From the IMG/VR virus record IMGVR_UViG_3300007754_000852: DNA of 64,000 nt. The stretch is one strand, 5' to 3'. Below, piece after piece: positions 4,557 to 33,168 of this stretch. The translations under genes were made by a program, and so were the position numbers. The stretch's first letter is position 1. Every line of letters begins with the position of its first letter. This DNA is from a virus. Lineage: Duplodnaviria; Caudoviricetes. Below the pieces are notes generated by a model. The model searched no databases. It had not been told where the DNA came from and saw nothing but the letters and a program-made list of their open reading frames with translations.

Positions 4557-7500
4557 TTAATCCTTTGCTGACTTGATTGCACGTCCCGCTGCCCTAACTA
4601 GTGCTCCCTTTTTTCCTTCACCTGTATATTCAAGTCGAGACGATGCGCCTCCATCATCATACACATCTCCTGCTATGTGCTCCATCGCACCCCCAACATT
4701 GTAAATAGGAGCCCTGTTGAAGCCAGCATGGTCAAGACCGGGAGGTAGATCGTGAATCACATCAAGCGATAATGTAACCTTGCACGCCATGGGAGCCCTG
4801 GCATTCCAGTCAATCTCCCATGGAAACTCCATCCAGTTAAAGTCTAATGATGTAATTGCACCTGCAAGCCCACGGCCCTTGGATGAGTTAAATGACTTAA
4901 CTATCGGATTATTTTTTTCATTCATAAAGCTGGCTGCAGATGTTTGTGAAATGTTAATCATGTCAGCAGGCAATCCAAGGGCTAAAGATGCCTCTTTTAC
5001 AAGAGCATCGGCGGCTGCCTGAGCTGTGAGTGCTCCTAAACCTATAGTCGAAAGAACAGCTGAATTGAATAGGTACGATGGATTTGGCATAATGTCTGCA
5101 TGGGTAACGGCCAGTCTCTTTCCTATCATGTTCAAGTCTACGCCTGAGTCAATTATAACAACACTGTAAATTGTCTTCGTTCGTGTTGTGCTTGACGATG
5201 GACCAGAAAATGTTCTGCTGTCTCCATTTTTTCCTATGGGTATCTGTGAAGATACTGTTCTTGTTCCTGCTAGCTTATTATTTGATTTCGAAGATGGTGA
5301 ACCAGACGTCTGACCATCAATCCACACCTTTATTGGTCTCGTTATTCTAAATCGAATAGCAGAATCATCCTCTACTATGTATCCATCATTATGTGACGCC
5401 TTGAGATAGTGTATCTCAGACTTCCTATATCCCTTTGTTGACCATCCGCGATCAGAAATTCCTATCTTTGATGCTGTTTCAGAAATTTTCTCAGACAACG
5501 TATCTGACCATGTTGAATTCTTTGGATTATCTGGGTCTTTCATCCTATCAAGAATTAGCTCTAACCCAAGAGGATTTGCAAAGCCATTAATTAAAAATTG
5601 AGATGTAAATGTCTTTGCTGCGACACCTGCACCGCCACCAATGTTTGACAAGCTAAGATTTCCTAATGATAATGCTAACGGCGAACCAAATAAAGAGTAA
5701 AACACCTTTATCATTGACTTAGACATGTTTGCAACAGAATCGTTTACACTATTAACTGTCGAACTAATACTTGACAATCCATCGCCTGTAACCTTTGGGC
5801 TTATGCCTGTATCTCCAATTCCAAATATTCTTGCCAGATTAAACTTTGAATAGTTTCCCTTTATAACATCACCAACTCTCATTCGAATAATCGGAGATGC
5901 ACCAAGAACTTGAGAAAACGGCTGAATAAACGTACTATCGTCAACAGACACCTTGTCACCCTGTGTCCACTTTGGATAAACTAATGTTGTTAGCTTATTT
6001 ATTTTCCACCACATCTCATCAAAATCTTCTTTCGATGTTGAGATAACATAGAATGTTGTTGACACAGTTCGTCTAGTTCCACTATATGACTTAACAGCAT
6101 CCATTCTACCATAGCCGCTTGAATCTCCAGAATATCCCGGGCTGTATCGATCTGTCAGCGTCTCGACAAATGCATGAAATGCAACTATTTCATTTGTTCT
6201 TAAATCATGAAAATAAAACGGAACATACTCTGAATCGAGCATGTTCTCCAGCCTCTCAATCACTGCTCCAGGTATTCTAGAATCCCCGCCTACCATATTT
6301 TCATCAATATATGCTTTCGTAGCAATAGATGTCCCTAATATCCCCTTTAGAGGATTTGTACCGTCTGACATTGTTCCCATTTCAAGTGCAGTATTGATTA
6401 TATTAGCTGGAACAAGATATGCAGAAGGAATTGAATTTCCTCTCCATGCTAGTGACATCGATGTGTTTCCATCGTTGCTTCTACTTTTAGATACCCTTGT
6501 TGCAGGACCATCCTCAAGCTCATCAACATTCCATGGGTTAACACTGTCATTAATTGAATCAAATTCTAAATTTCCACCTGTCATCTTAAAGCTAATGTTT
6601 CCAATTGTCGCTGCGACGTTTAAGAAACCAATAATCTTATTGCGACCCAGAGTCATAAATAAGCTTGATGTAACAGATGAATCATCATCTCCAATATCAC
6701 CTATCTCATTTGCTGCCCTTAGAACAGATCTTGCGATAGATAGCCAGAAGCCTGGTGCCTCCTGAATATGCTGATGCTTGACAACTGTTGACTTGTCAGA
6801 TGCTAACACGCCGTCAGATGTCGGACTTTTATCATCTGTAAATAGAACTCTAATTCCTCTATTAACACATTTATCATAAGGATAGTCAGTTGGAACTATT
6901 ACAAGACGCTTAAGTAGCTCAAATCTTGAATTTAACGCAAGGTTTGGACCTTTTCCAGACATATACGGTCCAGGATACATCGCAAGATTGTCTGATATAC
7001 TCTCACCAATAATTGACATTAGCATCTTTGATGCCTCTAGCAATGCAACTATTGCTGCTGCTGCCTGAGCCTTGACTATCTTTCTTGACCCTCGTGAGTC
7101 AAACATAGAGGAATCTGTATATGTTGACCCATATGATCGACTATTACTACTGTCATGTGATATAAAGCTGCCCCTACCGTGTCTATATGAGTAACCTTCA
7201 AGCTCTCCCTCAGAAATTTCCGGTCCGCCTTTTGCATTCATCGATCTAAGCAGAGAAAGGTCAACACCCCTAACACCATCAGAGACATCATCGTTTCTAT
7301 CATTAAGAAAATAATCTTCACCTATGTTACCTGGGCTCTGACTTTCACCCGGTATCGTCGAATCATCCCATCCTGCAGACTTTAACAGGAGAGACAAGCC
7401 GACATTTTTTAGATTATCGTTTATTACCCGTGTAGATTCCTTATCATACTCTCCAAATGATCTTTGTGCTGTTGTTGTTCCGAGGTCATCTGATCCGGCA

Positions 7501-12546: not shown

Positions 12547-14202
12547 ATGAAAACGTCAAAAAGATATAAATGTCCCATATGCTCATTTACGTGTGGAAGA
12601 AAAAATGACTTTAATACTCATGTTGTAGACTTCCACAATTTTTTGTCAACTCAAGATGCATATAATAAAGTTATATTAAAAACATCAAAAAATTTAACTT
12701 GTGCTTGTGGCTGTGAAGAAGAGTTAAAATTTGAAAGCTGGAATGTAGGATACTCATCTAAGTTTAAGCTAGGTCACAATGGATCAATATACTCAATCTA
12801 CGATGAAAAGCGAGCAAAAGAGATTTCAAATAAACGGTCTTTATCGCTAAAGGGAAAGGAAGGATGGTCAAAAGGACTTACAAAAGAAACAGACGATAGA
12901 ATCTTAAGAAGATCTAAAAAGATAAAATCAACGCTACAGGCAAAAAGCAAAAGAGGTGAAATAGCATCATGGTCAAAAGGTCTTACAAAAGAAACAGATG
13001 ATCGTCTTTTAAAATTATCAAAAAAATTAAGCGACAAGTATAGATCAGGTGAATTGATCCCATGGGCAAAAGGCCTTACAAAAGAAACAGATAACAGAGT
13101 GCTAGAAATGTCCCTTAATGTTGCAGAAACACTAAATAACAAAAAGATAAGAGATGTGCTAGATTCTAAAAAAAGGCTTTCAGAAGATGAAGTTATTAAA
13201 AGACTAAACATTAATGCACCCAAGCTAAAGTTAATATCTAAAATTGACAGCTATAAGCGCGATAAAATAAAAAATCTTATATTTGAATGTCGAAACTGCC
13301 ACAAACAACAAACTAAGAGCCTGATTCAGGCTATGAGCAATAGATGTGAAGACTGTGATCCACACGGGTCAAAGCATCAGATAGAAATAAATGACTTTAT
13401 AAGGAGTTTAGGCAAAGAAACTATTATGTGTGACAGATCGACAATAAGACCATATGAGATAGACATTCTTGTCAAAGAGTGTAGATTAGGAATAGAGTAT
13501 AACGGTCTTTATTTCCACAGTGAAGAGTTTAAGGATAAAAACTATCATAAGAGAAAGTCAGAATTATCACTCGAGCAGAACATCAAGCTAATACATGTCT
13601 TTGAAGATGAGTGGGAAGAAAAAAGAAGCATTGTTAAATCAATGATACGTCACAGGTTAGGAATGACGAAGATAAAGATTCCTGCAAGAAAATGCAAAAT
13701 TATAGATGTTGCCTATAGCGATAGAAAAAAGTTTTTTAATGAAAATCACATAGACGGTGACACAAAATCAAGCTGGGCGCTAGGGCTTGTTTATAATAAA
13801 GAGATTGTTGCATGCATATCTGTTAGAAAACCCTTTCATAAAAAATATAAAGGATACATAGAAATTGCTAGATTTGCAAATAAAATAGACGTTGTTATTC
13901 AGGGCGGCCTAAGCAAGCTGATAAAGCATGTAAAGGCTAGGGCCAAAAAAGACAGATATCAAAAAATTATGACGTATGTGGACCTAAGACATGGTCTTGG
14001 TGAATCATATTTAAAGTCTGGATTTTTAATACGTCAAAAGACAATTAATCGATTTTGGTGGACTGACGGTAAGACACGAATCAATAGGTTTAAAATAAAA
14101 GCAGATCCAACAAGAAACATGTCTGAAAAAGAGGTATCAGAAGAAGTTGGTGTTGTTAAAATATGGGGCTGTCCAAATATTATACTAGAAGTTGATATTT
14201 AA
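12547..14202 (+). CDS. Free-standing homing endonuclease (Hef-like): C2H2 zinc finger, tandem DNA-binding repeats, PD-(D/E)XK/Vsr-like nuclease
   Basis: CPIC..HVVDFH, CACGC, three W[SA]KGLTKETD[DN]R repeats, YEIDILVKECRLGIEYNGLYFHS nuclease motif; only credible plus-strand gene; ATG at 12547 preferred over GTG at 12499. Confidence 0.75.
   Translation: MKTSKRYKCPICSFTCGRKNDFNTHVVDFHNFLSTQDAYNKVILKTSKNLTCACGCEEELKFESWNVGYSSKFKLGHNGSIYSIYDEKRAKEISNKRSLSLKGKEGWSKGLTKETDDRILRRSKKIKSTLQAKSKRGEIASWSKGLTKETDDRLLKLSKKLSDKYRSGELIPWAKGLTKETDNRVLEMSLNVAETLNNKKIRDVLDSKKRLSEDEVIKRLNINAPKLKLISKIDSYKRDKIKNLIFECRNCHKQQTKSLIQAMSNRCEDCDPHGSKHQIEINDFIRSLGKETIMCDRSTIRPYEIDILVKECRLGIEYNGLYFHSEEFKDKNYHKRKSELSLEQNIKLIHVFEDEWEEKRSIVKSMIRHRLGMTKIKIPARKCKIIDVAYSDRKKFFNENHIDGDTKSSWALGLVYNKEIVACISVRKPFHKKYKGYIEIARFANKIDVVIQGGLSKLIKHVKARAKKDRYQKIMTYVDLRHGLGESYLKSGFLIRQKTINRFWWTDGKTRINRFKIKADPTRNMSEKEVSEEVGVVKIWGCPNIILEVDI
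12865..13098 (+). repeat. Three ~36-bp intragenic repeats encoding W[SA]KGLTKETD[DN]R
   Basis: Copies start at 12865, 12970 and 13063. Confidence 0.9.
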
Positions 14203-26151: not shown

Positions 26152-26317
26152 AGCTATCTCCAAAAAGTAATTCAGATATAACTATTTACTTCACAATGAA
26201 ATAATATGATGTCAATATGCTTATTGTACCATTATACAGCTAGTGATTGTGACAGCCCACGATATGAAAAGTATTGTACCAAGAACAGCTGCAAATAGAG
26301 ACTCACTATCAACTTTT

Positions 26318-26641
26318 TTATCGTGTGTGTCTGTGATGACTATGTCCCTGCCTGTGGTGGTTGTGTCCCTGTCTGTGATAATGTCGATTAGCTGGCGGAC
26401 CCTGCTTATGTGTTCTATATGATTTACCAAGTGACTTGTGATTCCAATAGCCCCCGTTCCATCTATATTTTCTAACGATAGTGTTTTTTCCTACACCGTA
26501 TTTTAGATATGACCAGTAACCAGGAACCCAGATCCACCCGGATTGAACGCTGACTGAAACTCCACTTCTAGCTGATGTGTGAGCGTGTGCTGAACAGCTA
26601 GTTCCAAAAAAACTAAGGGCAGCTAATAGCATAAACTTCAT
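26318..26641 (-). CDS. Secreted WXXGXW/YXWGXW-repeat protein with His-rich tail (107 aa)
   Basis: Signal-peptide-like MKFMLLAALSFFGTSCSAHA; WIWVPGYW and YRWNGGYW; tail HRQGHNHHRQGHSHHRH; GGAG SD. Confidence 0.7.
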   Translation of the reverse strand: MKFMLLAALSFFGTSCSAHAHTSARSGVSVSVQSGWIWVPGYWSYLKYGVGKNTIVRKYRWNGGYWNHKSLGKSYRTHKQGPPANRHYHRQGHNHHRQGHSHHRHTR

Positions 26642-26681
26642 GTTAAACTCCTATATATGATGCTTACATATATTATAAGCT

Positions 26682-26909
26682 TTAGGGCTGCCTTTCATTC
26701 AATTTTTTATTAAAAAAGTTTATTTTTTCTTCTTCAAGCCTGTCTGCTAGCCTTATAACATTAGTAGAAAATGTTTCTGTAAACAGAAATGGAACTATTG
26801 CGTGAATCACGCTAACAAAAAGCATCATTGCTGACCACACAGCAAATCCAAAAGATCTGTAGAAGTGTCCTAGATATGTCATGTCCGTATCTTTTAAATG
26901 TTTAAACAA
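26682..26909 (-). CDS. Small membrane protein resembling DUF6356 (75 aa)
   Basis: HL...MTYLGHF...VIHAIVPFLFTETFS pattern; TTG start with AAGGT SD. Confidence 0.6.
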   Translation of the reverse strand: MFKHLKDTDMTYLGHFYRSFGFAVWSAMMLFVSVIHAIVPFLFTETFSTNVIRLADRLEEEKINFFNKKLNERQP

Positions 26910-26948
26910 AATTTTACCTTTTATTTTATAACTATTTCACTAAGATAT

Positions 26949-26976
26949 AAAAAGGGCCGGTCGAAAGACCGGCCCT
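26949..26976 (-). terminator. Rho-independent terminator closing the large ncRNA
   Basis: Perfect 10-bp stem AGGGCCGGTC-TTTC-GACCGGCCCT followed by TTTTAT on the minus strand. Confidence 0.85.
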
Positions 26977-27647
26977 AGATGGGGGAAAAGCGCAGCATAC
27001 CTCGCTTTTCATTCTCGTGACCCTCAACTCCGCTTGAATTCGAAGCTGTCCCTTTTGGTTAGAGGTGCACACACCGACCTGTAAAGCCGTTCACGAGCTT
27101 TCTCCCTGTTCTTAGGCTGTAATACCTACGGAACAGCACGCCCTACTATCGCCATGACATTCTGCGTTCTCTTGAGTGAGCTGTACACTTCACCTCGTGA
27201 TCGCGCGCCCTGCTTCCAAACCTTGGGAGCATATCCACAGGACCCCTTTCGGGACGGTGGTCTTGTTGCCAATTCCACCAGAGAGACTTCTGTCACCGAC
27301 AGTTAGATTCTGAAGAGAGTTAACCCTTCTTCCCAAGACATCATAGCCTTTCGGCTTCTTGGATTGCCCTTGTCCCGTTTCCACGATGAACCTACAAGTC
27401 CATGGATACCCTCGGTAGCACTTCCCTAGCGGAATAGGGACTCATACCTTAGGCCACTGAACGACTTCGAAAGTTCCACCTTCCTTAACTCGTCCCTCCT
27501 CTTAGTGAAGCGGCATGACGTAAGAACGTCACCTTCTCCATCGGAGTTTTCTCTATCCTAATACCAAAAGATATTAGATCCAGGAGCCAGTAACTCCACC
27601 TGGATTTTTGGACCCGAGAACATGGGTCACATAAATTTTCAAAGAAC
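26977..27647 (-). ncRNA. Large structured non-coding RNA (~670 nt); resembles GOLLD/ROOL-type large phage RNAs in size and style, family unconfirmed
   Basis: No credible ORF; GC-richer than the flanking AT-rich spacers; many hairpins incl. GAAA/GCAA tetraloops and G-U pairs on minus strand; bounded by a promoter and a terminator. Confidence 0.75.
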
Positions 27648-27653
27648 TATAGA

Positions 27654-27682
27654 AGTATATACCTTCTACTTCTGTTGTACAA
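27654..27682 (-). promoter_or_regulatory. Sigma70-type promoter for the ncRNA
   Basis: Minus strand TTGTAC (27682-27677), 17 bp spacer, TATACT (27659-27654). Confidence 0.6.
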
Positions 27683-27684
27683 AA

Positions 27685-28239
27685 TTATACATCTTGTCTC
27701 TGCGATGTTTTAATGCCCGCGATTCTTTGCTTTTCTCTATATTCTGGTGTTCTAAGTGTGGCACATCTCTCATCATAGTTATCCTTCCATCTCTTTTTTG
27801 CAGCTCGGCTATAGTTTTCTCTATGTGTGGCAGTTCTAACCTTTCCATAGTTTGGAGAATTAATTCCTTTTTTGCCATACATGCCGTTATTTTTACCTAT
27901 TGATGAGTGGCCTGAAACGTATTTCGCGAAACCTCCTTTGTTATATCTTACTTTCTCTCCGCAGCCACACTTGCACACGGGCCATTTGCCATCGTGATTA
28001 AACTTAACAATATAGTCTACAAACTCTACCTGATGTTCTTTTCTTACGTGTCTTGCGAGAACATTGTTTGTATTTGCAACTCGTTTATTGCAGATATTAC
28101 AAGACAATTTAAACTCAACACTCTTGTCATATAGCTTTTCTGCAATATCCTTATGCCAATAACCGATATGCGACCCTATTGATCTTTTTGTATTGCTTAG
28201 CAGTTTATCGCAGTATTCACACTTTACTTTTTCTACCAT
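27685..28239 (-). CDS. Zinc-finger / NUMOD3-like DNA-binding protein lacking a nuclease domain (184 aa); possibly a truncated homing endonuclease
   Basis: CEYC..HIGYWH, CNIC..HVRKEH, CKCGC..VSGH, GKNNGMYGKKG; parallels the N-terminus of the 12547-14202 protein; GAGGT SD. Confidence 0.7.
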   Translation of the reverse strand: MVEKVKCEYCDKLLSNTKRSIGSHIGYWHKDIAEKLYDKSVEFKLSCNICNKRVANTNNVLARHVRKEHQVEFVDYIVKFNHDGKWPVCKCGCGEKVRYNKGGFAKYVSGHSSIGKNNGMYGKKGINSPNYGKVRTATHRENYSRAAKKRWKDNYDERCATLRTPEYREKQRIAGIKTSQRQDV

Positions 28240-28297
28240 ATTTACCTCTACATAGTAATAATATAGTATGAATAGATTTTTGTAAACTACTTAAAAT

Positions 28298-28325
28298 AAA
28301 AAAGGAGGGAGCAAAAGCTCCCTCC
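28298..28325 (-). terminator. Rho-independent terminator after the major capsid gene
   Basis: GGAGGGAGC-TTTT-GCTCCCTCC followed by TTTTTT on the minus strand, 23 nt after the capsid stop. Confidence 0.9.
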
Positions 28326-28347
28326 CCGTTCATTAGATGAACTTTTT

Positions 28348-30279
28348 CTAGATCACATTGAGATCAAGCACCGTCACAGTGCCGTAGAAGTCAGCACGAA
28401 CCATCTTTTTGCCGTATCGAGTCATCACTCCCTTGCGAGGCGTGAAATCCTCTGGAGCAAAGATCGTCGGTGTGACAATTAATGGTACGTACGGAGCGTA
28501 AACGTATCCTGTCTCAAGGTAGCTACCGCCCTTATAACCAACAAGAACCTTGTTGCGTGGGAAGTAGGGGTCCTTATAGACCGTGAAACGGTTGCTCAGC
28601 GTACCGACCGGAGCTGCACCGAGTGTGAACGGATTACCAACCTGACCGTCGCCGTCAAGACTGTAGTTAGGCTTGTAAAGAACTGATGCCTCGAATACCG
28701 TTGACACCTCAGGTGAGCAAACGATGAAGTTTGCAGAACCGCGAAGAGTCTTACGGTGAATCTCATTAGCGACATCGATGATCGTCTCAACTAGCGTCTC
28801 ATACCACTCACGGACCGTACCTGTGAAGCTAGGACCGGAAGCTAGAGTGCTAGAAAGAGTAGCCTCTGTACCGTTTGTCTTGTTAACGAACTTACCTGGC
28901 ATGCGTGACCAGTAGTAGTTAGCACCTGCTGCCTCGACCAGGAGATCGTTTAGGATCTCACGGTCGATCTCAAGAGCTACCTGCTCAGAGAGGATCTGTG
29001 TTAGCTCGACCTCAGCATCCATGCTGTGGTAGGCGTTAAGATCCTGTGCGAGCTCTGGTGACCAGCGAGCACGTAGCTTGCGTGTCTGAGCTGTTACAGC
29101 GATTGACTCGATCTTGATGTCGATCTCAGGGATCGCCGGGGAGGGCGATGACGCGAAATCAGACTCAAACGATGGAATCGTGAGAGCAGAGCCGTCAGAT
29201 GTATCGATGTCAAGTGACGCAGCCAATGCGTATGATGCAGTTAGGTTAGCAACACCAGCCGGATGGGCCTTGTGAGATCCTGTAACAACAACAAGAAGAG
29301 CGGCATTTGCAGACGTTCTTCCAATGAGAGGATCTGACGTGAACTGACCGTTAGCATATGTTCCCACCTGGTTCAGACGTCTGACGTTAACAAGGTTCTT
29401 GCCACCCTGAACTGACTCAGGTACGGCTGAAAGACCGTTTCCGCCTCCGCCTTGATCTGAACCGAGGTCAGCATCTGTGAACAGTGAGACATCCTTAGCC
29501 TGTGTTGTATCCATAGAGTTGAACACTGAGGAGGCTAGATCAAGAATCACGAACTGGAACTCACCAGTTGTGTTCTGTGCTGTGTCATCGTCAATGAGGT
29601 TTGTTAGCTGTGGATCGAACTGTAGAAGTCGACCGTCAGTACCCGTTGATGCACAGACGCGACCATCTTGTAACGTTGAGTTACCCTGGAAGGCACCTGA
29701 TGCCAAGACGTTTGATGTCTGAACAATAGATGAGCTGTGAACCTTGGTATACGATGTTCCAACTAGATCATACTGACCACCGACAGCCAAAGATCCGCTT
29801 TGGACACCCTTGCCTGTGGGGTTGTTGTAGATCGACTGACCCTTACCGTATGTCTGCGCATTTGCTGCACCTGCGGCACCTGTCTGGAGATTTGAATCAC
29901 CGCCGATGCGGGTTCCATATGTGTAATCCAGATAGAAGAGCAGACCAGAGGGAAGGCTCATAGGCTGAATTGATACCAACTCATTAGATACGAGACCACC
30001 GAAGACCCTGCGGACGATCGGGAAGGCGATGTTTGTGAAACCACGAAGATCGCCAGATGTTGTCATGTTTGCTGCGCCTGTTGACAGAGAGTTTTGCTCT
30101 CTTAACAGCTGTGCAGCCTGATTCTCAAGAAGTCGAGACATGATCTCTCTATTGTGATCAGCGAGACCACGAAGAAGACCTGTTCTAGACCACTTTTCAA
30201 TCAGTCGTTGACCTTCAGCACCGACATTTCTCTGCCTGATGCCTTCTGTCAACTGTTCTAGTGTAAATGATTTTGCCAT
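28348..30279 (-). CDS. gp23: Major capsid protein (T4 gp23-like, 643 aa)
   Basis: FPIVRRVFGGL..ELVSIQPMSLPSGLLFYLD; TRKLRARWSPELAQDLNAYH; EIDREIL; VGYKGGSYLETGYVYAPYVPL; FTPRKGVMTRYG. Confidence 0.95.
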   Translation of the reverse strand: MAKSFTLEQLTEGIRQRNVGAEGQRLIEKWSRTGLLRGLADHNREIMSRLLENQAAQLLREQNSLSTGAANMTTSGDLRGFTNIAFPIVRRVFGGLVSNELVSIQPMSLPSGLLFYLDYTYGTRIGGDSNLQTGAAGAANAQTYGKGQSIYNNPTGKGVQSGSLAVGGQYDLVGTSYTKVHSSSIVQTSNVLASGAFQGNSTLQDGRVCASTGTDGRLLQFDPQLTNLIDDDTAQNTTGEFQFVILDLASSVFNSMDTTQAKDVSLFTDADLGSDQGGGGNGLSAVPESVQGGKNLVNVRRLNQVGTYANGQFTSDPLIGRTSANAALLVVVTGSHKAHPAGVANLTASYALAASLDIDTSDGSALTIPSFESDFASSPSPAIPEIDIKIESIAVTAQTRKLRARWSPELAQDLNAYHSMDAEVELTQILSEQVALEIDREILNDLLVEAAGANYYWSRMPGKFVNKTNGTEATLSSTLASGPSFTGTVREWYETLVETIIDVANEIHRKTLRGSANFIVCSPEVSTVFEASVLYKPNYSLDGDGQVGNPFTLGAAPVGTLSNRFTVYKDPYFPRNKVLVGYKGGSYLETGYVYAPYVPLIVTPTIFAPEDFTPRKGVMTRYGKKMVRADFYGTVTVLDLNVI

Positions 30280-32904: not shown

Positions 32905-33168
32905 TTATAGATCCTTCATGATCTGCGACTTGATCGCATTTCGAATTCGCCTGACACGCTTTAAGTTTTTGATTAATCTCGCCTCAGCCAATCCTAGCTT
33001 TTTGGCATGGTCAATCTTGTGAGATAGTGTTCCTGCAAGAGAATCAGCATCGACCTCTTTTGCATCGTCAGATGATGCGCCAGGAAGCCCAGACTCTTCT
33101 AACTTTCTCTTTTCATCAAGAACCATCTGCTTTAAAAGATCAGATGTTAGCTTCTTTACAGTTGACAT
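32905..33168 (-). CDS. Hypothetical head-cluster protein (87 aa)
   Basis: GGAG SD; leader KKLTSDLLKQMVLDE. Confidence 0.75.
   Translation of the reverse strand: MSTVKKLTSDLLKQMVLDEKRKLEESGLPGASSDDAKEVDADSLAGTLSHKIDHAKKLGLAEARLIKNLKRVRRIRNAIKSQIMKDL

Follow-up and report, generated by a model that had tools for sequence, protein, structure and literature searches.

Very large structured RNAs of bacteria and phages are, to our knowledge, limited to a handful (the rRNAs, group II introns, RNase P, OLE, GOLLD, ROOL and raiA), and each of them is either a machine of unusual interest or an open puzzle. GOLLD (RF01998) comprises very large (600-800 nucleotides, nt), multi-domain, pseudoknotted and phage-encoded RNAs of unknown function, which often lie beside or directly behind tRNAs and carry palindromic apical loops that mediate symmetric kissing contacts; GOLLD env-38, for example, is located downstream of a tRNA-Met (PMC12286853). 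ROOL (RF03087), found in phages and prophages, measures ~600-660 nt and contains several pseudoknots; it is often encoded close to tRNA islands, and no protein is known to partner it (PMC12286853). Here we analyzed a 64,000-nt stretch of the viral record IMGVR_UViG_3300007754_000852 (the window, whose numbering is used throughout), where positions 27682-26947, read on the minus strand, hold an ornate RNA whose size class and family-wide setting are like those of both. We consider it probable that 27647 to ~26948 on this strand is a stand-alone ~700-nt non-coding RNA gene of an uncatalogued family, perhaps acting in trans as GOLLD and ROOL may do. The kind of element, a giant ornate phage RNA near tRNAs, is already known, and the family itself is new to the catalogues searched.

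The window was compared with Rfam 15 (4227 families, including GOLLD, ROOL, OLE, HEARO, introns, RNase P and transfer-messenger RNA, tmRNA), and cmscan at gathering thresholds gave no match over its whole length. With permissive filters and E <= 10, positions 26600-28000 gave short chance matches only, mostly on the terminator, and none to the models of group I/II introns, RNase P RNA, tmRNA, OLE, HEARO, raiA or rRNA. The same comparison for 14 homolog loci at E <= 1 returned tRNAs and chance matches, and nothing else of note; the covariance models of GOLLD and ROOL matched neither this copy (E <= 10) nor those 14 loci (E <= 1). The RNA thus lies outside GOLLD, ROOL, OLE, HEARO, raiA, group I/II introns, RNase P, tmRNA and rRNA as modelled there, and the lack of a match for the window copy and the 14 loci indicates a new family rather than a divergent GOLLD or ROOL. 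An earlier note on this DNA, which had proposed the cmscan comparison, left the choice between a divergent member of these families and a new class of large RNA. The latter stands and the former does not, and its placing of the element in the GOLLD/ROOL size class holds for what is a genuine large ornate RNA. By blastn against 50,697 GenBank phage records, the RNA found nothing at E <= 1e-5 and chance matches of 25-38 nt at E <= 10, and no description of the family was found in the RNA catalogues or literature searched. Compared to GOLLD, the helices and conserved blocks differ and a boxA-like leader is present. Compared to ROOL, a cage-forming family of rumen and Lactobacillales habitats, this one belongs to marine water-column phages.

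Parts of the RNA-encoding stretch were contained in 20 marine sequencing runs from 13 studies, and six of these runs were metatranscriptomes. In the run contigs, UUG-GCAA-CAA is swapped for CCG-GCAA-CGG in one variant, and the conserved flank served as a scan pattern. Every scan match counted as a homolog was confirmed by nhmmer; in a first pattern scan, only 2 of 11 stretches were genuine. Exact-pattern scans gave 14 viral and 46 metagenome loci with RNA homologs (numbered L086, L142 and so on), all told more than 60 copies, including 27 non-redundant full-length copies, 66-92% identical to the window copy, which made up the covariation alignment. The family is split into two main clades, and one 33-kilobase (kb) metagenome contig (L142) carries one copy of each, on the same strand and 7 kb apart (5368-6114 and 13001-13754), with identities of 70% and 86% to the copy of the window. 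A 16-mer scan of genome contigs yielded at least 120 matches, all due to chance among those listed (nhmmer), and is uninformative on prophages.

We then examined whether the fold is conserved among these relatives. RNAalifold on the 27 copies predicted 158 pairs, 82 of them with compensatory changes on both sides. In a separate consensus of 183 pairs, 97.2% of the cells were canonical pairs, and we counted 89 double-change pairs compared to 55.8 +/- 3.4 (maximum 68) in 300 column shuffles. When the partner was slid by 1-3 columns, 41-45% of the cells were paired and 20-27 pairs changed on both sides. A covariance model of the most conserved domain, R1 (175 nt, 27137-27311), gave 62 matches among the homolog loci, with one in the window, and it was not found in 151 genomes sampled from the class of a marine flavobacterium. 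After realignment of the 62 matches with R1, 98.6% of the cells were paired and 29 of 48 pairs changed on both sides, against 13.5 +/- 1.7 in shuffles, where none of 500 reached the observed value, and 4-12 in the slid-partner controls. Metatranscriptome contigs displayed such changes at equal depths, with sense 27200 U to C together with 27170 A to G, and 27205 C to U together with 27165 G to A. Covarying homologs, named beforehand as a test of the RNA, were found, with covariation far above both kinds of control. Overall, about 30 helices and three pseudoknots are kept by compensatory mutations, and the RNA is conserved.

The pseudoknots are three non-nested covarying helices recovered by stacked-pair filtering; a naive all-against-all covariation list was dropped, as it was swamped by the split into two clades. 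In the alignment read by eye, the pseudoknot that involves the loop of the terminal hairpin presented the triplets UGC/GUA, CUU/AAG, CAG/CUG and CAA/UUG. In the 5' domain, all 8 pairs of helix 27604-27596/27586-27579 covary, followed by a variable segment (27555-27578), a three-way unit (27496-27546) and hairpins at 27459-27495, 27408-27454 and 27380-27406. The linker region tolerates many indels among the natural variants of the RNA runs; its CCAAG/CUUGG stem is present and invariant in all copies, and encloses an insert of variable sequence. In the 3' domain, helix CUCGUG/CACGAG (27097-27092/27019-27014) encloses three small helices. The stems drawn in the earlier note were largely recovered. 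Covariation across the homologs was observed for GUGACGU/ACGUCAU (27515-27532), UCCCUA/UAGGGA (27423-27440, 6 of 6 pairs), GGUGG..CCACC around UUG-GCAA-CAA (27255-27280) and CUGUUC/GAACAG around UAGGU/GCCUA (27106-27136), and compensatory variants were seen by eye for GAAAAGCG/CGCUUUUC (26985-27010). By contrast, the stem proposed at 27558-27577 falls in a segment variable in sequence and length, and is missing from the consensus fold. A CUCGUGA element had been given two complements: the pairing of 27092-27097 with 27014-27019 was retained (3 of 6 pairs covary) and that with 27194-27200 was not. A long-range GUGACCC/GGGUCAC pairing found no support either: its 5' element forms the local hairpin GACCC/GGGUC (27628-27611) and its 3' element takes part in two covarying helices.

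Between the helices run long invariant single-stranded junctions, GGGAGAAAG, AUAGAGAAAAC and CGAUAGUAGGGCGUG. Such junctions within an ornate pseudoknot-rich fold are like those of catalytic cores, and together with the frequent placement directly 3' of tRNAs (see below) they would suit a new large ribozyme, for instance one processing itself from tRNA polycistrons or acting on tRNAs or other RNAs during infection. We nevertheless hold a ribozyme to be decidedly unlikely, in view of the lack of a match to the ribozyme or intron families of Rfam 15 and of any identified conserved candidate cleavage site; moreover, self-processing would be needless for the copies that possess their own promoter and terminator.

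The limits and the coding status of the gene were also assessed. An ORF (open reading frame) scan gave none longer than 64 amino acids (aa) in 26949-27682, variable columns of the homolog alignment were evenly spread over positions modulo 3 (127/126/124), and the majority of gap runs were not multiples of three. This region is non-coding, as the earlier note had claimed from the want of a credible ORF. Its G+C content is 0.52-0.53 compared to ~0.35-0.40 on either side, and its minimum free energy of -260 kcal/mol beats that of dinucleotide shuffles (-228 +/- 9.6; z = -3.4), a comparison also set beforehand. The minus-strand promoter and the terminator that had been proposed were both recovered by consensus scan, the former as a sigma-70-like TGTACA-16-TATACT with an expected transcription start at ~27646-27648, the latter as a strong hairpin followed by a T run. 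TGTACA and TATAAT-like boxes with the same spacing are present upstream of many homologs, including copies in tRNA islands, and many homologs end in equivalent terminators of differing sequence. As presented in Table 1, the order on the minus strand is gp23-type capsid gene, terminator, zinc-finger ORF, promoter, RNA, terminator and DUF6356 ORF.

Table 1. Features of the RNA gene and of its surroundings (all on the minus strand; RNA elements in sense orientation).
Feature	Positions	Strand	Basis or detail
gp23-type major capsid gene	28348-30279	-	Pfam Gp23, 1.5e-76
Terminator closing the capsid gene	28327..28302	-	separate from that of the RNA
184-aa zinc-finger ORF	27685-28239	-	BED/C2H2 zinc finger by Pfam
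c1 remnant, last ~10 codons ..DKMYNFVQQK*	27666..27699	-	homology to L086 from ~27699; codons 27695-27666
Promoter, -35-like (T)TGTACA and -10 TATACT	27654..27682	-	consensus scan, TGTACA-16-TATACT at 27681..27654
boxA-like leader GUUCUUUGAAAA, 5' end of the transcript	27636..27647	-	family alignment
5' hairpin GACCC-AUGUUCUC-GGGUC, invariant loop GUUCUC	27611..27628	-	one compensatory G-C to A-U (L120)
5' domain	27380..27604	-	helix table and pair table
Pseudoknot candidate, loop UUCUUA/UAAGAG	27526-27521/27504-27499	-	compensatory changes
Pseudoknot candidate, loop UAGGUUC/GAAUCUA	27394-27388/27310-27304	-	compensatory changes
Linker region: CCAAG/CUUGG stem (27333-27362) and hairpin 27329-27312	27312..27379	-	alignment, consensus fold
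Core domain, most conserved, model R1	27137..27311	-	closing helix 27307-27291/27159-27141 around four sub-helices, GCAA and GAAA tetraloops
Hairpin AGU-GUACA-GCU with invariant palindrome UGUACA	27179..27189	-	stem covaries (R1 alignment)
3' domain: hairpin CUGUUC..GAACAG 27136-27106, invariant purine strand GGGAGAAAG, helix CUCGUG/CACGAG	27014..27136	-	pair and helix tables
Pseudoknot GUGUGC/loop GUAUGC of the terminal hairpin	27072-27067/27000-26995	-	6 base pairs, 3 covarying
Terminal hairpin GAAAAGCG..CGCUUUUC	26985..27010	-	alignment by eye: GGAACA/UGUUCC, GAGAG/CUCUC
Intrinsic terminator AGGGCCGGUC-UUUC-GACCGGCCCU, then U run	26947..26976	-	consensus scan: 10 base pairs, 8 G-C, hairpin 26976..26953
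DUF6356 ORF	26682-26909	-	downstream of the RNA terminator

To follow expression, contigs from one DNA run and from three RNA runs, each of a different study, were placed on 26300-28700 at a likeness of at least 80%. The RNA-run contigs (3, 32 and 125 per study) were confined to 27029-27676, with a word depth of up to 788; none lay on the zinc-finger or DUF6356 ORF and almost none on the 3' end of the capsid gene. In the DNA run, depth was 4-6 on the flanks, up to 105 on the capsid end and 12-68 on the RNA. The ratio of RNA to capsid is therefore far higher in RNA than in DNA libraries, which argues for transcription rather than carried-over DNA, and the excess of DNA depth over the RNA shows that relatives are present in many further genomes of the sample. 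Cover in the RNA runs was absent over 26948-27028 and thin over 27596-27676, and these contig data say nothing about transcript ends. The metatranscriptome coverage that had been called for is thus found in three independent studies, on the RNA only. The RNA is abundant in ocean metatranscriptomes and, as judged from contigs, apparently among the most abundant phage transcripts there.

The transcript opens with a leader of consensus G(U/A)UCUUUNA(C/A)A in 26 of the 27 aligned copies; UC-UU, A and A are invariant in all 27. Between it and the hairpin GACCC-NNGUUCUC-GGGUC come 8-20 variable nt rich in A/U. The Escherichia coli rrn boxA is UGCUCUUUAACAA, from which the leader differs at one position in most copies; the leader of one copy (L142b) is GCUCUUUAACAA. 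It is also close to the rrn leader of Marinomonas (GCUCUUUAAAA, 245 nt before the 16S gene), and three Flavobacteriaceae rrn leaders hold GUUCAUUGA or GUUCAUAUA ~140 nt before the 16S gene. The sole deviant RNA copy (L117) has exactly GUUCAUUGAAA, the Flavobacteriaceae 16S-leader motif. Outside the RNA leaders, the motif occurred three times on the same strand and four times on the opposite strand in 442 kb of carrier loci, which is the chance level. A boxA-like sequence was found near the 5' end of an untranslated transcript, as the short linear G(U/C)UCUUUNA(A/C)A is in the long untranslated transcripts of rrn operons and lambda nut sites. The order of boxA-like motif, variable spacer and hairpin also recalls lambda nut (boxA-spacer-boxB), but the hairpin loop is unlike boxB and the motif could pair within the RNA. 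BoxA is the NusB-NusE antitermination site, as on rRNA (PMC3177189, PMC2800207). From this resemblance, it is an evenly balanced possibility that the leader is a boxA-type Nus-factor site as on rRNA, and the chances appear just as even that it would confer Nus-assisted, Rho-resistant synthesis.

A leader of this kind on an abundant RNA could also point to a protein sponge or mimic, that is, a decoy that would bind up host factors; these could be ribosomal proteins, a defence protein that binds RNA or, by way of the leader, NusB/NusE. The very high apparent abundance in metatranscriptomes and the retention of the boxA-like motif in essentially every copy, even behind tRNAs, count for it, as does the proposal that an OLE dimer sequesters RpsU (PMC12286853). 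We consider a sponge unlikely: a linear-motif decoy needs no ~650 nt of conserved tertiary structure, and the analysis turned up no conserved protein partner; c1, the small gene next to many copies (see below), has no RNA nearby in two of three independently sampled contexts and is destroyed in the window.

The window contains two more sequences resembling boxA, at 33141 and 40192; both fall within coding sequence, and we attribute them to chance. Separately, Leptobacterium, Flagellimonas and Salegentibacter (L275, L277 and L278) share the conserved motif AAGUUCAU(U/A)(G/U)A ~140 nt before their 16S genes, and it looks like a Bacteroidota version of boxA.

A second conserved element is the palindromic loop of the core domain, where UGUACA is identical in 50 of the 52 copies covering it. 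The exceptions are L105, whose CGUACG keeps the palindrome by a double change, and L120 with UGUACU. In OLE and GOLLD, palindrome-preserving loop variation is taken as evidence for symmetric kissing loops (PMC12286853). Here the preserving change is a single event, so that self-pairing through UGUACA is only a lead, and at most an indirect hint at anything like the nanocages of GOLLD and ROOL.

From these elements, the following course may be proposed. In this phage, the RNA would be transcribed from its own sigma-70-like promoter and end at the intrinsic terminator. The boxA-like motif at its 5' end would recruit host factors of the NusB/NusE type, and the long untranslated transcript would thereby escape Rho and fold co-transcriptionally like rRNA. 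Once folded, the RNA would work in trans in the manner of GOLLD and ROOL, either as a scaffold or as an RNA machine, and might self-associate via the palindromic UGUACA loop; the process would be linked to the economy of tRNAs and translation in the infected cell. By analogy, we regard as possible, somewhat short of probable, a trans-acting GOLLD/ROOL-like RNA particle, maybe self-associating and tied to this economy. More doubtful is the fuller picture of an undescribed giant phage RNA machine, either a UGUACA-built RNA-only particle (dimer or cage) or a new ribozyme, that would be antiterminated through boxA and Nus factors and act on both the tRNAs and the translation apparatus of infected marine bacteria.

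Several points weigh against a stand-alone RNA gene acting in this way. Its function can only be conjectured from comparison of sequences, the oligomerisation of the RNA is an analogy, and the lone double change in L105 is equally explained by a simple improvement of the hairpin closing pair. As the boxA-like motif is invariant, covariation cannot tell protein binding from RNA pairing, and RNAalifold pairs the leader UCUUU with the invariant GGAGA (27105-27101) of the purine strand GGGAGAAAG. Contigs can give neither transcript ends, strand nor true abundance. Furthermore, the window has neither tRNAs nor the small neighbouring gene kept by many relatives. Taken together with the evidence above, the family adds a well-supported class, widespread among large marine phages, whose ~700 nt form ~30 helices and three pseudoknots that covary, and offers a target for cryo-electron microscopy and biochemistry with 40 or more diverse sequences. 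It is possibly the first phage structural RNA gene with an rRNA-type boxA leader.

Regarding its genomic setting, the RNA has no fixed neighbour across the family, apart from a frequent placement in tRNA islands. tRNAs lie on the strand of the RNA in 24 of the 36 homolog loci examined, which adds to the as yet unexplained association of giant phage RNAs with tRNA islands. The earlier remark that no tRNA is visible applies to the window, where ARAGORN found neither tRNA nor tmRNA; it does not extend to the family. In 6 of the 36 loci (L093, L098, L103, L108, L117 and L125), a tRNA is directly upstream and ends 7-90 nt before the RNA. In L098, whose copy is ~650 nt long, the boxA-like motif begins 7 nt past the CCA of a tRNA-Lys, too close for a promoter to fit in between; the copies directly behind a tRNA are probably co-transcribed with it. 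Phage T4 encodes two stable RNAs, species 1 and 2 (rnaC and rnaD), of ~120-140 nt, which lie in the tRNA cluster, are co-transcribed with tRNAs and have an unknown function. They share with the present RNA the status of non-tRNA stable RNAs in the tRNA cluster of a T4-type phage, whereas the latter exceeds them fivefold in size and keeps a conserved and elaborate tertiary fold. As a separate observation, the L098 genome, a complete 204-kb marine phage, also encodes a tmRNA (346-766, tag ANNNYYFEESRLAA) in the tRNA island that holds the RNA.

The carriers found so far are large (185-317 kb) uncultured marine phages, mostly with a T4-type gp23 capsid. Among the carrier records, those of 185, 204 (a complete genome with terminal repeats), 236, 242 and 100 kb encode capsids 48-69% identical to that of the window, of which no homolog was detectable in a carrier of 317 kb (94% complete). 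Among cultured phages, the closest capsids, at 46% identity, come from T4-like phages of Flavobacterium. From the position of the RNA in the head module, the earlier note had considered a role in assembly or packaging and suggested collecting homologs downstream of related capsid genes. None was found near 80 related capsid genes of IMG/VR or in five related viral records searched in full (102-140 kb), save chance matches of 16-26 nt. In the closest related capsid loci, the interval from the capsid gene to the next conserved gene is ~1 kb, compared to ~4 kb here, which places the RNA within a hypervariable insert. The 71%-, 94%- and 100%-complete carrier records each hold a single RNA copy, ~100 kb from the capsid gene in the two of them that have a gp23-type capsid. 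The head-module position therefore carries no functional message, the proposed role loses its basis, and the place beside the capsid gene is a by-product of a hypervariable insertion site.

We finally considered the adjacent genes. Downstream of the RNA, a block containing the DUF6356 ORF, a 107-aa ORF and others is syntenic with it in its closest relatives, L086, L101 and L113. This synteny would suit a cis-acting leader or riboswitch-like element controlling the DUF6356 and small secreted protein genes. Such an element is very improbable and close to refuted, since the RNA is cut off from the next gene by a strong intrinsic terminator, other clades have a tRNA or an unrelated gene there, and known cis-regulators are far smaller and have far fewer domains.

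Upstream, many relatives keep a small gene, c1, encoding a protein of 67-71 aa on the same strand (consensus MSD.NKSGYELRTDLLGMA.GIV...EAEKLYAFVQKK), for instance at L086:1212-1412 and L111:11209-11421 and in 24 other loci. It immediately precedes the RNA in 7 loci and immediately follows it in another 7, and a further 12 loci have it within 3 kb. The protein is matched by neither Pfam nor PHROG, its predicted fold is a hairpin of two helices, and public data contain 1965 clusters of it. As an obligatory partner of the RNA, c1 was rejected: the RNA lay within 4 kb in only one of three independently sampled c1 contexts. This outcome and an almost constant following gene, for an FKBP-type prolyl isomerase, suggest that the link may be regional synteny.

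In the window, a remnant of c1 overlaps the end of the zinc-finger ORF in another frame, and the -35 box TGTACA of the RNA lies within the remnant's codons; in some relatives, the -35 box likewise overlaps the last codons (FVQ) of the small upstream gene. Together with the homology to the closest relative (L086) from ~27699 on, the remnant indicates that the zinc-finger ORF seems to have replaced c1. In our own reading of the sequence, made without a tool, this ORF carries NUMOD3-like GK motifs and no nuclease domain, and its protein had no relatives in the viral contigs searched or beside any other RNA copy. A BED/C2H2 finger with such motifs, in a hypervariable insert, might suggest that the RNA is a decayed gene, intron or mobile-element remnant linked to a homing-endonuclease-like ORF. 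The massive covariation and the independent contexts practically refute this explanation; in addition, the stretch has no coding periodicity and no group I or II intron match, and the zinc-finger ORF, without a relative beside other copies, seems to have displaced c1 and not to have travelled with the RNA.

Some minor observations concern the capsid genes. The window capsid protein is 643 aa long and is matched by Pfam and PHROG profiles in two stretches, which suggests an insertion of ~200 aa relative to T4-type capsids; the G+C content of its gene (~0.50) is well above the genome background. The 242-kb phage contig of locus L147 (G013:C1:139110-142962) encodes two tandem full-length gp23-type capsid paralogs of 640 aa, 69% and 68% identical to the window protein.

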